From the NCBI GenBank assembly GCA_017991635.1, contig JAGOQE010000002.1, positions 35,018 to 99,017 of the forward strand: DNA of 64,000 nucleotides. The letters are read 5' to 3'. This stretch comes from Minisyncoccota bacterium (GTDB lineage: Bacteria; Patescibacteriota; Minisyncoccia; Phycocordibacterales; Phycocordibacteraceae). The notes under the pieces were generated by a model. It had not been told where the DNA came from. It searched no databases and saw only the letters and a program-made list of their open reading frames with translations. Both the position numbers and the translations under genes were made by a program. Of the stretch, positions 3,372 through 26,035 are shown piece after piece; position 1 is the stretch's first letter, and each line of letters opens with the position of its first letter.

Positions 3372-4138
3372 AATCACCCATATTCATAGGCTATGCAACG
3401 ATGGTACGAAAAGAGTTCGTACGTATTACTCGTATCTGGTCACAAACCTTGCTTCCTCCAGTCATTACGACATCACTGTACTTCCTTATCTTTGGTGGGT
3501 TCATAGGCTCTCAAGTTGCGCCGATTGCCGGGTACTCTTACATGCAGTTCATTATGCCGGGTCTTGTCATGATGACCTTGATAACGAGCGCCTACATGAA
3601 CACCGTCTCCACGTTCTACTTTTCAAAGTGGCAGAGAGTTATGGATGAGCTTCTCGTTTCGCCCATGCCTAACTGGACCATTATCGCCGGCTTTGTGACC
3701 GGTGGCCTTTTGCGTGCCTTCATGGTCGGTCTCCTTGTGGTTGGTGTGTCGATGTTCTTCACACATCTTTCTGTATTTAATATTTTTGCGCTCTTCTCGG
3801 CAGCATTTTTGACGGCGCTTCTCTTTGCGCTTGCCGGGATTATCAATGCTATCTATGCGAAGTCGTTTGACGCGATTTCAATAGTGCCGAACTTTGTGCT
3901 TACACCACTCACGTACCTTGGCGGCGTGTTCTATTCAGTGGAAGTGTTGCCACCGTTCTTCAGAGACATTTCGTATTTCAACCCAATTCTCTACATGGTG
4001 AATGCGTTTCGATATGGTTTCCTTGGTGTGTCTGACGTCTCAGTCGCTATGGCCTTTTCAATTATGGGAGGAATAGTCGTTTTACTTACTGTGTGGGTAC
4101 TTGTCTTGTTTAAACTTGGAGTTGGTATTCGCCGTTAG
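3368..4138 (+). CDS. ABC-2 family transporter permease
   Basis: 256 aa, six TM helices. Overlaps the stop of the upstream ABC ATPase by 4 nt. Confidence 0.8.
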   Translation: MKSPIFIGYATMVRKEFVRITRIWSQTLLPPVITTSLYFLIFGGFIGSQVAPIAGYSYMQFIMPGLVMMTLITSAYMNTVSTFYFSKWQRVMDELLVSPMPNWTIIAGFVTGGLLRAFMVGLLVVGVSMFFTHLSVFNIFALFSAAFLTALLFALAGIINAIYAKSFDAISIVPNFVLTPLTYLGGVFYSVEVLPPFFRDISYFNPILYMVNAFRYGFLGVSDVSVAMAFSIMGGIVVLLTVWVLVLFKLGVGIRR

Positions 4139-14243: not shown

Positions 14244-14714
14244 ATGACTGAGCAAGAAACAATAGTGAGCCAGGAGAAATTTGACGAAATGGTTAAAGAG
14301 CTTGAAACGCTTAAGACCGTACGACGTACAGAAATCGCAAAGAATCTCGAATATGCACGTTCTCTTGGAGATTTGTCTGAGAATGCTGAATACCAAGAAG
14401 CACGTGAGCTACAAGCAGCAACAGAAGAACGCATCCGAAAGCTCGAGGAATTGGTTAAGCGCGCAAAGATTGTCACTGATGGCAAAAAGAAAGATGTTGT
14501 TGGATTTAGTTCTAAGGTACAAATCAAGCGCGAGGGAAGTTCTGAATCTCACGAGTACACCATCGTAGGTTCTGAGGAAGCAGATATGCGTGAGCGAAAG
14601 CTTTCTCACGTCTCACCACTTGGAGCTGCACTCATGGGTAAGAAGAAAGGAGATACGTTTACGTTTGAAACACCAGGAGGTAAGCAGACGTATTTAGTTG
14701 AAAAAGTCTCGTAA
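14244..14714 (+). CDS. greA: Transcription elongation factor GreA
   Basis: 157 aa; the GDLSENAEYQEARE coiled-coil motif and FKBP-like C-terminal domain. Start moved to internal MTEQE. Confidence 0.88.
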   Translation: MTEQETIVSQEKFDEMVKELETLKTVRRTEIAKNLEYARSLGDLSENAEYQEARELQAATEERIRKLEELVKRAKIVTDGKKKDVVGFSSKVQIKREGSSESHEYTIVGSEEADMRERKLSHVSPLGAALMGKKKGDTFTFETPGGKQTYLVEKVS

Positions 14715-14731
14715 GTAATTGTTTGTATGAA

Positions 14732-14760
14732 AAAGGGCGGGTCCTATGGACCCGCCCTTT
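14732..14760. terminator. Bidirectional intrinsic terminator between convergent greA and the 14784..15197 gene
   Basis: 13-bp perfect stem aaagggcgggtcc / ggacccgcccttt with a 3-nt loop, A-tract before and T-tract after, so it can work in both directions. Confidence 0.6.
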
Positions 14761-14783
14761 GCCGTTGGTGATGTCTCGCAACG

Positions 14784-15197
14784 CTAGATCATCAGACCGT
14801 TGTCCCGTGCCCGGAGGCTACGGTTTGCACGCCACCGTGCGAAGCGTTCCCGTTTTCTCTTAGGAGGGAAAAGTCCAGAGAGATTGAGAAGCGCCGTCTT
14901 CAAGGCTCGCTCGAGATCTTCCTTGGGCCCTTGGCGAACCCGGAGTGCGACCATGCGCGCTGAAGAGCGAGCAAAGGTCGGCACGTGGATGTCTCGCGCA
15001 AGCAAGGCCTCGAGGGAAGTCGCCACGCGAAGAAATTTCCCCGGGAAGCGACCCTTCAGACTCGTGAAGAGGGTCGTGGCATTCGTGGGGGCGACAGGGT
15101 CTGCTCCCGTGAGAATCAGCGTACTGGCGCCAAGTTCACGGAGTGAGGCGAGAGCCGAGACAGCGAGTGCGTCGTTCTCGTGTGCAACATACAGCAT
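14784..15197 (-). CDS. Hypothetical protein, GC-rich orphan gene (unknown function, Arg/Lys-rich C-terminus)
   Basis: 137 aa with a protein-like hydrophobic pattern. AGGGGA SD 9 nt upstream of the ATG. Coding region is noticeably more GC-rich than its surroundings. The overlapping plus-strand ORF is Arg-rich antisense noise. Confidence 0.5.
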   Translation of the reverse strand: MLYVAHENDALAVSALASLRELGASTLILTGADPVAPTNATTLFTSLKGRFPGKFLRVATSLEALLARDIHVPTFARSSARMVALRVRQGPKEDLERALKTALLNLSGLFPPKRKRERFARWRANRSLRARDNGLMI

Positions 15198-15488
15198 TAT
15201 AGTTCCCCTAGGTGTCTTCTTTGGGCTAAAGACAACAGTGTGAAAGATCAGTGGTGCCCAAACTAAAACGAGCTTCCGATTTTTGGTCGGAAGCTCGCGT
15301 GAATTTTCAGTGTAGGAGAGTTAATCTGCTGAACGCTCAAGCGAAGTCCCGACCGGACGTAGAAGTCCGACCCAAATAAAGGTGTAGGTGACGTTTGAGC
15401 GCATGCGATTCATGACTGTAGAAGAATAGCGTCAGACCTCGATACGGTCAAATGAAACATACGATTTCTGGGGATAAGGTATGCGTGG

Positions 15489-15534
15489 TGGGAGATTGTG
15501 TCATATACTAGTCTACTAGTGGGATGAAGTGGGA
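15489..15534 (+). promoter_or_regulatory. Putative MraZ operator: three TGGGA direct repeats upstream of mraZ
   Basis: TGGGA at 15489-15493, 15520-15524 and 15530-15534. The last two sit inside 10-bp tandem units AGTGGGATGA and AGTGGGATAT, 28 nt upstream of the mraZ ATG. E. coli MraZ binds spaced TGGGN repeats in its own promoter. Confidence 0.4.
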
Positions 15535-15561: not shown

Positions 15562-15996
15562 ATGTTCATCGGAGAATACCGTCACACTTTTGATACTAAG
15601 AATCGCGTCTCACTTCCTGCGAAGTTTCGTAAGGCTATTGGTACCTCCGTCATTGTTACTCGTGGCTTGGACCACTGTCTCTTTGTGTACTCAAAGACTG
15701 CTTGGAAGAAGGAAGCAGAGAAAATTGCTAAACACGCTACAGGAAATGCTGCTGGGCGTGGTCTTTCTCGTTTGATGCTTGCTGGCGCGTCAGAGGCTGA
15801 TGTTGATAGCGCAGGACGTATTCTTGTACCTGATTACCTACGCACCTTTGCTGGACTCTCAGACAAGGCAGTAATTGCTGGTGTGTCAGAGCGCATTGAA
15901 ATCTGGGATGAGAAGGCTTGGGAAACCTACACCAAGGCTATTGAGCGTGATGCAGATATGTTTGCAGAGACCCTCGGCACGCAAGGCGCCCTATAA
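15562..15996 (+). CDS. mraZ: Transcriptional regulator MraZ
   Basis: 144 aa; two MraZ/SpoVT-AbrB-like repeats (DTKNRVSLPAKFR...). First gene of the dcw cluster. Confidence 0.9.
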   Translation: MFIGEYRHTFDTKNRVSLPAKFRKAIGTSVIVTRGLDHCLFVYSKTAWKKEAEKIAKHATGNAAGRGLSRLMLAGASEADVDSAGRILVPDYLRTFAGLSDKAVIAGVSERIEIWDEKAWETYTKAIERDADMFAETLGTQGAL

Positions 15997-20457: not shown

Positions 20458-20529
20458 GGCCTCATCGTCTAACGGTTAGGACAGATCCCTCTCACGGATC
20501 AAATCGGGGTTCGATTCCCCGTGAGGTCA
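20458..20529 (+). tRNA. tRNA-Glu (anticodon CUC)
   Basis: Cloverleaf folded by hand: 7-bp acceptor stem (one G-U), 4-bp D stem with a GG-containing loop, anticodon stem gatcc/ggatc with loop c-t-CTC-a-c, 4-nt variable region, T arm cgggg-ttcgatt-ccccg, discriminator A, no encoded CCA. 72 nt. Confidence 0.8.
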
Positions 20530-24365: not shown

Positions 24366-24432
24366 AGCGTTTCCTCCAGTTTCTACCTCTACGCTATGAC
24401 CTAGAAGGCATAAAATCAAGCCCTCTAGGTAC

Positions 24433-24461
24433 TTGACTTTTGACACTATGTGTGATAATAT
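24433..24461 (+). promoter_or_regulatory. Sigma70-like promoter for the GC-rich gene: TTGACT ... TGtGATAAT (extended -10)
   Basis: TTGACT at 24433-24438. TGTGATAAT at 24451-24459 (alternatively read as TAATAT at 24456-24461 with a 17-nt spacer). Sits in an AT-rich 163-bp spacer 70 nt upstream of the 24529 ATG. Confidence 0.4.
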
Positions 24462-24528
24462 ATATGTACGTCAGGAAGGCTGACGAAGTACCTCAACATC
24501 AATCAGTTTACCTCTGGAGACGACCCAC

Positions 24529-25596
24529 ATGACCCAGTCCCAAGAAGCGCGTTTCGACTTCCCGGGTTTCAACCTGGTGAAGACGCAGGACAACGACCGC
24601 CACCAGGTGGAAGTCGGCACGATCGAGGACGGGGACCACGTGTTCACCGTCACCATGATCCGCAGCCAACAGCACCAGTTCCTCCCGTTCGCCATCTCGA
24701 CGGTGGCCGACAAGGACGGCAAAAAGATCTGGACCTTCCAGGGCGCCAAGCACGACGGTGTCGGCCTTCTGGCCTACGCCGGCGATGTGCCCGTCATCGC
24801 GCTCATCACGCGCGGCAAGGATCCCATCGTCGAGCGGGTCATTCCGCTCACTTCCCTGGTCAGCAACAAGCCCGTCGGGCTTCGTGAACTGATCAAGGGC
24901 AAGATGGGCGCCGCCATCGACCTCGACTGCCGCTACCGGCTGACCGAGGACGAGGGGAAGGTCGTCAAGATCGACGAAGGCCGGATGCACGCCGAGATGG
25001 TCCGCAAGGACCGCGAGGCGAGCGAGCGTCGGAACTCGGCCCGCGATGCGGAGAAAATCCGCAGGCAGGAAGAGGCCCGGGCACAAGAGGCGGAGCGCGA
25101 AAAGCGCGTCGCCCTGATCATGATCCGGGAAATCGTCACGGGCTACACCGCCCTGGGCGAACGGCGCTACGGCACTCCGGTCCTCGAGGCCGAGTGGCAG
25201 TCGCTTCCGAACGGCACCTTCGCCATTCTCGTCGACGCCATCGGCGAAGACGGGAAGGTCGGCAAACTGCTCGAAAGCTTCAAGATCGTGAAGCAGGCGG
25301 GCAGGCAACCGATGAAGGTGATGACCAGCCAGCTGGCCGCCAGGCAGGAAGGTCCGACGGAAATTCCGGAGGAGCTTCAGCCCACGGGCACGGTTCTGGT
25401 GGAGATCAAGGACGACTTCTTCAATGTCGGCCTCTACGCCTCCAAGGACCTGATCAACAGGGCCTGGAAGGCCGGTCTCAACGGCGGCGCCTATGTGGCC
25501 GTCGACGACCGTGACGCCGACGGCAAACTGGTCGTCTTCACCGTCACGAAGGAAACCGGCGCCAAGAAGGTCGGCTCCTTCATCCCCCTCGGCTAG
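24529..25596 (+). CDS. Hypothetical protein encoded by a strongly GC-rich (foreign-looking) ORF: two globular regions joined by a highly charged E/R-rich helix
   Basis: 355 aa; GGAG SD 9 nt upstream. The third codon position is almost always G or C (GAC, GGC, CTG, ATC, AAG, CGC...). Followed by a textbook intrinsic terminator. No family recognised. Confidence 0.6.
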   Translation: MTQSQEARFDFPGFNLVKTQDNDRHQVEVGTIEDGDHVFTVTMIRSQQHQFLPFAISTVADKDGKKIWTFQGAKHDGVGLLAYAGDVPVIALITRGKDPIVERVIPLTSLVSNKPVGLRELIKGKMGAAIDLDCRYRLTEDEGKVVKIDEGRMHAEMVRKDREASERRNSARDAEKIRRQEEARAQEAEREKRVALIMIREIVTGYTALGERRYGTPVLEAEWQSLPNGTFAILVDAIGEDGKVGKLLESFKIVKQAGRQPMKVMTSQLAARQEGPTEIPEELQPTGTVLVEIKDDFFNVGLYASKDLINRAWKAGLNGGAYVAVDDRDADGKLVVFTVTKETGAKKVGSFIPLG

Positions 25597-25645
25597 TCCG
25601 AGTACTGCACCTTAGGCCCCACCCAATTGGCCTTTCAAATGGGAA

Positions 25646-25678
25646 CCCCGTAGTCATGCGACTACGGGGTTTTGTTTT
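25646..25678 (+). terminator. Intrinsic terminator of the GC-rich gene
   Basis: Perfect 10-bp stem ccccgtagtc / gactacgggg with an atgc loop, followed by TTTTGTTTT. Confidence 0.7.
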
Positions 25679-25686
25679 ATACAGAG

Positions 25687-25717
25687 CGCCCCTGAAGACC
25701 TTCGGTCTTCAGGGGCG
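25687..25717. other. Second GC-rich hairpin (about 14-bp stem, 3-nt loop) between the convergent genes
   Basis: gcgcccctgaagacc-ttc-ggtcttcaggggcg. No clear T-tract on either strand. Confidence 0.4.
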
Positions 25718-25720
25718 TCT

Positions 25721-26035
25721 TCATTGCAGTGTCTTAAATTTTGTCGGATCAAGACCCGCAAGAACATTTATGGTGTGTTCACCAGGCACGGGCTCTGTGG
25801 GCACGTGAATCAATGCACACTCAGGAGAGAGACAGACGCCATCGCGTAGTTGCGTCAGGCACATAATGGCTCTCTCAAGCATCTCAGTAATGGCGAGAGT
25901 TGAAGCACTTTGAAGGAGGGACTTCTTTGTGCTTGTAATCACTCCGTCATAGATGACGGCACCGAAGCTTGACCCTTCAAATTCAAAGTCAAGAATCCAC
26001 GAGCCAGGTTGGTTCGGAAACAACAGGTCGTTCAT
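25721..26035 (-). CDS. Hypothetical protein (104 aa), downstream of truB on the same strand
   Basis: Host-like composition; no motif recognised. Confidence 0.45.
   Translation of the reverse strand: MNDLLFPNQPGSWILDFEFEGSSFGAVIYDGVITSTKKSLLQSASTLAITEMLERAIMCLTQLRDGVCLSPECALIHVPTEPVPGEHTINVLAGLDPTKFKTLQ

Follow-up and report, generated by a model that had tools for sequence, protein, structure and literature searches.

The question raised by the locus between greA and mraZ in a Minisyncoccota bacterium (GenBank assembly GCA_017991635.1, contig JAGOQE010000002.1) is whether an unusually GC-rich open reading frame (ORF), located on the minus strand at positions 14784 to 15197 of the 64,000-nucleotide stretch that we analyzed (here called the window), is a foreign orphan, as a sequence-only reading of the locus had suggested, or a resident gene with a regulated place beside the dcw cell division cluster. 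Our best explanation, to which we assign a probability of roughly 0.55, is that the ORF belongs to a gene family that sits behind a leader and is controlled by ribosome-mediated attenuation. The regulatory architecture appears well supported by comparison between genomes; the mechanism of the leader and the function of the protein are inferences.

First, the ORF (the translation of which begins MLYVAHENDALAVSAL) was compared with its counterpart in L001, a contig from another metagenome that has the same greA-ORF-mraZ order. The two copies are 78.7% identical and free of indels, and their substitutions fall 14, 12, and 62 times on the first, second, and third codon positions of the minus frame, respectively, with 58 synonymous and 17 nonsynonymous codon changes (ratio of nonsynonymous to synonymous substitution rates [dN/dS], 0.08) and no stops. 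By this pattern of change, and with the homologues and structure model described below, the ORF is a genuine protein-coding gene for 137 amino acids, under purifying selection. A Shine-Dalgarno (SD) sequence, AGGGGA (15209 to 15204, minus strand), lies 6 nucleotides before its ATG, and a purine-rich, GGGAG-like block occupies the equivalent position in leader alignments of other loci. The ORF on the opposite strand (14800 to 15243), which has gained three stops in L001, was rejected as a gene.

Long ORFs on both strands might also mean that the GC-rich block is a structured noncoding RNA and that the ORFs of either strand are artefactual, an idea that gains something from folding z-scores of -3.2 to -3.7 and from a plus-strand sequence, GGAGGGAAAAGUCC, that is reminiscent of RNase P RNA. 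Against this, Rfam held no match to the block at an E value of ≤1, the protein has homologues and a confidently predicted fold, and substitutions in the minus frame show a three-base periodicity along with the low dN/dS given above. Since the minus-strand ORF evolves as coding sequence relative to L001, with the codon periodicity decisive and Rfam negative, we rejected the structured-RNA reading, to which we give practically no credence. In the whole window, the Rfam scan detected no RNase P RNA, transfer-messenger RNA, or signal recognition particle RNA, and its only gathering-level match was a tRNA gene (20458 to 20529, plus strand).

The protein itself matched nothing in Pfam, NCBIfam, PHROGs, PADLOC, or the sequences of the PDB, and a word-indexed protein search returned only two near-identical proteins. 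When 1.84 billion cluster representatives were scanned exhaustively with HMMER (cutoff, E ≤ 1e-3), however, 19 family representatives of 132 to 168 amino acids emerged, matched nearly end to end. We then used MraZ to fetch 80 species-level genomes, all of them from Patescibacteria and mostly labeled Paceibacterota or Parcubacteria, and an iterated family profile found a member in 27 of these, always on the strand opposite mraZ and ending 300 to 400 bp away from it. To avoid the bias of anchoring on mraZ, four distant members were located directly, and all four were divergent from mraZ as well. On their far side lay either greA or a class I lysyl-tRNA synthetase gene, the latter being one example of the genes that take the position of greA in other lineages. 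Because the far-side gene varies and mraZ stays, we consider mraZ (15562 to 15996, plus strand; PF02381, E = 2.6e-36), and not greA, to be the constant partner. As judged from these genomes, the ORF belongs to a rapidly evolving family without annotation, made up of basic proteins of some 135 to 165 amino acids, so far found only in Patescibacteria (Paceibacterota/Parcubacteria) and always encoded divergently from mraZ in the contexts examined. That the gene is real and that its family is conserved is, taken together, close to certain. The window contains one family member; tandem duplicates were found in two loci, L068 (2462 to 2908 and 3183 to 3647) and L076 (2386 to 2874 and 3164 to 3637).

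This leaves the composition that made the ORF look foreign. Its GC content is 60.1%, versus 48.9% for the window (z = 3.3), a value equaled by only 1.5% of the 414-bp segments of the window; by codon position, it amounts to 0.66, 0.51, and 0.64, and the last of these (GC3) compares with a mean of 0.47 (standard deviation, 0.07) among the long ORFs of the window. Leucine, alanine, and arginine together make up 43% of the residues. Given the amino acids of the protein and the codon usage of the window, a GC content of 53.5% would be expected and 60.3% is found; because amino acid composition accounts for only part of the excess, codon choice must have shifted, too. Synonymous divergence from L001 (dS, 1.04) is likewise raised, to about 1.7 times that of greA (0.64) and mraZ (0.57); candidate causes are relaxed codon selection, biased gene conversion, and recombination.

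These numbers agree with the roughly 60% GC and GC-rich third positions estimated in the sequence-only reading, which was also right about the good SD and the unrecognizable protein. That reading took the ORF for an orphan of foreign composition that had entered between greA and the dcw cluster by horizontal transfer; in a softer form, a resident copy would have been replaced by a xenologue from a GC-richer relative. Besides the GC and GC3 values, the meager yield of the word-based search, the raised dS, and the existence of GC-rich relatives with family members of similar GC content all favor such an origin. It is opposed by the many related genomes in which homologues occupy this position. 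Beyond L001, the closest homologue (P0003; 50% identity) comes from the nearest sampled lineage and is syntenic: its contig, L092, has the same greA-ORF-mraZ order, and GreA and MraZ are 96% and 89% identical, respectively, to those of the window. Protein divergence of the family, relative to that of MraZ, is 12.4% to 2.8% between the window and L001 (4.4-fold) and 49.6% to 11.1% between the window and L092 (4.5-fold), and since this ratio is equal at two depths, it points to a steady, fast clock rather than to a one-off foreign replacement. Moreover, the leader and the terminator that flank the ORF are vertically conserved. The L092 copy is of ordinary composition (GC, 53%; GC3, 0.48), and family genes exceed their own genomes by an average of only 2.4 GC points; because of this, the excess of 11 to 12 points is best seen as a recent peculiarity of the window and L001. 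The compositional deviance is thus real but confined to that lineage, in which it arose recently, during rapid vertical divergence, and a foreign origin, which could not be demonstrated, now seems very improbable. Nor is the gene an orphan: lineage-wide conservation of an orthologue at this junction, which had been named beforehand as evidence that would count against a foreign insertion, is indeed observed, with the orthologues divergent from mraZ in the relatives.

The 364 bp that separate the ORF from mraZ (320 to 430 bp in most loci) form a large gap for such compact genomes, and the part between 15198 and 15310 is about 96% identical between the window and L001, above the flanking genes. 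On the minus strand, this gap starts with a near-consensus sigma-70 promoter (15451 to 15423; TTGACC, 17 nucleotides, TATTCT), found by promoter scan, the -10 element of which ends 9 nucleotides before the AUG of a micro-ORF of 30 codons (15413 to 15321; MNRMRSNVTYTFIWVGLLRPVGTSLERSAD). A TANNNT sequence ending 6 to 11 nucleotides before the start codon was present in 18 of 19 leaders and a -35 element matching TTGACA in at least five of six positions in 16 of 18, with an SD-like sequence preceding the micro-ORF in just 1 of 19; because the -10 element adjoins the start codon, the micro-ORF transcript would be leaderless or nearly so. In at least 36 of 40 leaders, the micro-ORF is open, is 28 to 34 codons long, and starts at the same position, even though mean column identity is only 42%. 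Its peptide has a conserved hydrophobic and aromatic core with conservative substitutions, followed by GLLxPVGVSLE, and matched nothing in the protein libraries; Rfam held no matching family either, even with better-conserved leaders as queries.

Downstream of the micro-ORF follows a terminator-like hairpin with a 12-bp stem (15298 to 15268; free energy, -20.5 to -22.4 kcal/mol; z = -4.8) and then UUUAGUUUGG (15267 to 15258); the copy in the window passes a terminator scan. All 40 leaders form stems of 11 to 19 bp here (-18 to -38 kcal/mol), although the stem sequences differ, and 17 of the 40 have a GNRA loop on the ORF strand. RNAalifold on the hairpins as aligned by MAFFT brought the arms out of register and recovered only 6 pairs, so per-sequence folds were used instead. 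Between the hairpin and the SD, most leaders contain a conserved box, GAUCUUUCA (15241 to 15249 in the window, minus strand; recognized from conserved alignment columns), which could serve as an anti-SD segment or as a protein-binding site. A small hairpin of 7 bp (15213 to 15234, minus strand), predicted by the minimum free energy fold of the leader in the window and, with the alignment read by eye, apparently present in many loci with a sequence that varies between species, precedes the SD.

The feature that suggests a function for this arrangement is that the last eight to nine codons of the micro-ORF (region 2; 15354 to 15329) are a near-copy of the 3' arm of the hairpin (region 4), so that the hairpin's 5' arm, together with the flank before it (region 3; 15310 to 15285), may pair with either of them. 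Region 2 can pair along the whole of region 3, and a strong 2:3 duplex was found in 40 of 40 leaders, with a mean of -33.2 kcal/mol, versus -12.6 kcal/mol when region 2 was shuffled; on average, it is also more stable than the 3:4 hairpin (mean, -26.4 kcal/mol). In the alignment, 92.1% of the 2:3 cells were paired, compared with 28 to 62% when the partner columns were slid. Changes on both sides affected 12 of the 23 pairs and numbered 52 in total, versus 12.7 ± 3.2 after shuffling, with none of 500 shuffles reaching as high a count. In one example, the hairpin arm reads CCUGACC and region 2 reads GGUCAGG, at the cost of a glycine-to-arginine change in the peptide. Because region 2 tracks the hairpin arm despite such residue changes, part of the conservation of the micro-peptide is imposed by the RNA. 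A helix between the start and the end of the micro-ORF (1:2) occurs in a subset of leaders, such as L036, L052, and L029, and is compensatory in L085 and L090; it was rejected as a general feature, being weak on average. On the strength of these covariations, an RNA switch between mutually exclusive 2:3 and 3:4 pairings is quite likely; that it acts by ribosome-dependent termination is, in our view, about an even bet.

The ORF thus closes a small minus-strand unit made up of, in this order, the sigma-70 promoter, the apparently leaderless micro-ORF, the hairpin with its alternative pairing, the conserved box, the SD with the ORF, and the terminator shared with greA. In the proposed mechanism, a ribosome at the end of the micro-ORF would mask region 2, allowing 3:4 to pair, so that the hairpin forms next to its U-rich tail and transcription stops before the ORF. 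If the ribosome falls behind or halts on the micro-ORF, the 2:3 duplex, which is the more stable one, would form first and strip the hairpin of its base, RNA polymerase would read through, and the ORF would be expressed. In such a scheme, the ORF would be switched on under slow translation, and the leader probably ties its expression to the performance of translating ribosomes. Similar logic is found in the Escherichia coli attenuators trpL, ilvL, and pheL, where a short 5' ORF directly precedes the regulated gene and supplies, with its own codons, one strand of a helix in competition with a downstream hairpin that runs into U residues; ribosome-mediated attenuators reportedly also control drug response genes, such as Bacillus subtilis bmrCD. 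The mraZ-linked leader differs from these classical attenuators in that its micro-ORF appears leaderless and in that it is fixed beside mraZ with a cargo that differs between lineages. Additionally, because the 1:2 helix is weak, an untranslated mraZ-linked leader should default to read-through, unlike the classical ones. Two further differences weigh against attenuation itself: the alignment shows no run of one amino acid in the micro-peptide, and hence no run of a single regulatory codon, and the U-tract is modest, with an average of only 3.5 U in the 10 nucleotides after the hairpin across the family. A last difference from the classical attenuators is that the leader occurs in Patescibacteria, which, to our knowledge, largely lack amino acid biosynthesis.

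Alternatively, the micro-ORF might be a stand-alone gene for a small protein, with the hairpin as its terminator or mRNA stabilizer, and the 137-amino-acid ORF might be expressed by constitutive read-through or from a weak promoter of its own, without any sensing of translation. The conservative substitutions in the hydrophobic core of the peptide fit this well, as do the variable cargo (see below) and the fact that the micro-ORF and its strong promoter, always found with mraZ, are better conserved than the gene downstream. What it leaves unexplained is why complementarity of region 2 is maintained by compensatory changes at the expense of amino acids and why each duplicated gene copy comes with its own leader, and we therefore regard it as unlikely. 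Attenuation by the ribosome remains our preferred reading.

In the mraZ-anchored set, the leader was detected in 43 of 80 genomes, in 18 of which no family gene could be detected; the window contains one leader. A metagenome scan with a 19-nucleotide core of the leader yielded 120 stretches, of which 20 were true leaders and 100 were chance matches; mraZ was divergently located upstream of the true ones in all 17 testable cases, and a family gene followed in 7 of 15. Because the leader persists where the family gene is missing, we regard it as the conserved mraZ-linked element and the ORF family as the commonest occupant of the slot behind it. By these counts, conservation is higher in the leader than in the gene that follows, with the family filling the slot in roughly half of the cases. 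Tandem duplicates comprise the whole module, each paralogue having kept its own micro-ORF leader. Similarly, a second leader was seen at 2938 to 3074 in L051. Elsewhere, the slot is occupied either by family members that have diverged very far or by small acidic ORFs that are unrelated but recur. Two types of the latter, located some 130 to 160 nucleotides downstream of the leader core in genomes without the family gene, are type B (...GVEPG[DE][ST]I..PIPRPY..DPDDW..GYTSL; L145, L212, L191, L178, and L006) and type C (...AAYGEG..PPM.T.ADRD.FE..QR.GW..RS; L155, L030, and L035), which, as judged by their recurrent position, are alternative cargoes for the same switch. In L017, a masked run of N directly downstream of the leader (about 3560 to 3680) hides the cargo. 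Finally, many metagenome-assembled genomes of the CAY* and CAZ* series (L007, L009, and L013 among them), titled "uncultured Candidatus Saccharibacteria," bear the mraZ-linked leader together with an MraZ that is 73 to 81% identical to that of the window, which is Paceibacterota-like; the taxonomic labels of these records look unreliable.

The exchange of cargo brings to mind a conflict-type module, either toxin-antitoxin-like or defensive, in which the small proteins behind a stress-sensing leader would act as effectors or as immunity factors and the hydrophobic peptide could resemble a type I toxin. The unrelated small ORFs that take over the slot in other lineages, tandem duplication, evolution about 4.5 times faster than that of MraZ, and the nature of the peptide (hydrophobic and 28 to 34 residues long, with a start codon that can be sequestered in some loci) all point in that direction. 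On the other hand, neither PADLOC nor PHROGs gave a match, the chromosomal location beside mraZ is constant throughout a broad clade and not mobile, a dN/dS of 0.08 reflects ordinary purifying selection, and the hydrophobic stretch of the peptide often contains arginine or lysine. Such a module therefore appears improbable.

The half of the gap that is proximal to mraZ contains, on the basis of conserved alignment columns, the mraZ promoter with its MraZ operator (15488 to 15532, plus strand). MraZ operators upstream of dcw clusters consist of GTG(G/T) boxes at a 6-nucleotide spacing (PMC12957436), and here, two pairs of such boxes about 21 nucleotides apart, GTGG-N6-GTGT (15488 to 15501) and GTGG-N6-GTGG (15519 to 15532), flank a -10-like element, CATATACT (15502 to 15509), a four-box arrangement that is highly conserved across the clade. 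Whereas the boxes and their spacing around the -10 element are standard, the location of the operator back-to-back with a second strong, divergent promoter, the one driving the micro-ORF unit, is not; because it adjoins that promoter, MraZ may control both. Searches of the literature turned up no earlier account of a gene or leader divergent from mraZ in bacteria of the candidate phyla radiation.

As to the protein, the structure model (mean predicted local distance difference test [pLDDT] score, 84.5) shows an alpha/beta core (residues 1 to 110) and an Arg/Lys-rich tail (residues 111 to 137), which bears out, as far as a model can, the small domain with a basic tail proposed from the sequence alone. 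The isoelectric point is 11.5, with a net charge of about +12, and 23 of 25 family members have 8 to 14 lysines and arginines in their last 35 residues. Conserved throughout the family are D9, G23, R57, P73, and A102, and mostly conserved are H6, K54, R68, and the motifs FPSKxLR and RGFxIPxWA. Neither the protein nor any of 20 family members matched Pfam at an E value of ≤1, and a Foldseek search of the model against the PDB and BFVD gave nothing significant. The fold class appears to be that of the [NiFe]-hydrogenase maturation endopeptidases HybD/HycI (PDB 5ija and 1cfz) and of the peptidyl-tRNA hydrolase Pth (PDB 8axp and 4yly), so that the product might be a cytoplasmic alpha/beta domain of this class that lacks the motifs of either. 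HybD and HycI bind metal through a Glu/Asp-Asp-His triad, which is not recognizable here; only Asp9 is a plausible positional counterpart, as judged without residue-level superposition. Identity to HybD/HycI is 14%, PF01750 gives no match, the basic tail is extra, and the context is mraZ and greA, without hydrogenase genes. Pth, in turn, has about 190 amino acids, as opposed to a core of 110, is 10% identical, and differs in that PF01195 gives no match and its catalytic His and Asp cannot be identified. That the protein is a divergent HybD-type endopeptidase or Pth-type hydrolase is, accordingly, highly improbable, even in the strongest form of this idea, in which a Pth-like domain with an ArfB-like tail would rescue stalled ribosomes.

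The top match of the family profile among PDB sequences was in fact ArfB, but at a nonsignificant E value of 0.19, with the match covering a strand, a helix, and the basic tail. ArfB (YaeJ) resembles the ORF product in length (about 140 amino acids) and in architecture: behind a globular domain come a helix and a C-terminal tail rich in lysine and arginine. The ORF product, however, has neither a GGQ motif nor an RF-1 domain (PF00472) and adopts a different fold, so we rejected an identity with ArfB and treated the likeness as a resemblance of the tail only. The tail might tether the protein to nucleic acid, possibly RNA or the ribosome; binding to nucleic acid in this way is our best guess at a function, albeit a tentative one.

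At its other end, the ORF converges with greA (14244 to 14714, plus strand; identified by Pfam). Between the two stop codons lies a hairpin (14732 to 14760) with a perfect 13-bp stem, three A-U pairs included, and a loop of UAU or AUA, depending on the strand. It is stable on both strands (-27.4 kcal/mol and z = -5.7 on the plus strand; -26.5 kcal/mol and z = -6.9 on the minus strand), is followed by UUUUUCAU on the minus strand and by UUUGCC on the plus strand, and is kept in L001 except for one loop base, in line with the shared bidirectional terminator that had been proposed. It is absent from the output of a consensus terminator scan, probably because its stem takes up the A/T bases on either side. 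With the leader and the GC-rich block as queries, Rfam 15 gave nothing at an E value of ≤1 except weak matches at the terminator hairpin (14658 to 14769, plus strand), to Atu_C9 (E = 1.7e-4) and the L20 leader (E = 0.18), both below the gathering score; we rejected membership in either family, as the greA terminator hairpin alone causes these scores. Elsewhere in the window, the strongest compositional outlier is an ORF of 355 amino acids (24529 to 25596, plus strand) with a GC content of about 64%, a GC3 of about 0.86, and no Pfam match, located inside the GC-richest block (24421 to 25874); long ORFs also occupy the opposite strand (24508 to 25308). It is probably one of the other ORFs that the sequence-only reading had called foreign.

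In summary, the locus reveals a new protein family, the fold of which is predicted with confidence, and a previously undescribed, conserved regulatory module beside the dcw cell division cluster in Patescibacteria. It also calls for caution: an ORF of 60% GC in a 49% GC genome, without a word-search match, looked foreign yet was vertically inherited, and only an exhaustive profile search combined with synteny exposed the family. Gene regulation in these uncultivated organisms is very poorly known, and the size of the module suits in vitro work; the proteins that fill the slot in different lineages offer a handle on lineage-specific biology. A broader reading, though we find it distinctly unlikely as a whole, is that the leader is a Patescibacteria-specific translation-sensing switch that comes on when ribosomes trail RNA polymerase and drives a lineage-variable set of small, fast-evolving proteins, the ORF family being the commonest of them. 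Acting on the ribosome or the division machinery, these proteins would, if this is true, tie cell division in such ultra-small symbionts to their capacity for translation. In the sharpest version of this reading, the ORF product would represent a ribosome-associated factor of a new kind, in which a domain resembling Pth and HybD is joined to a tail resembling that of ArfB.
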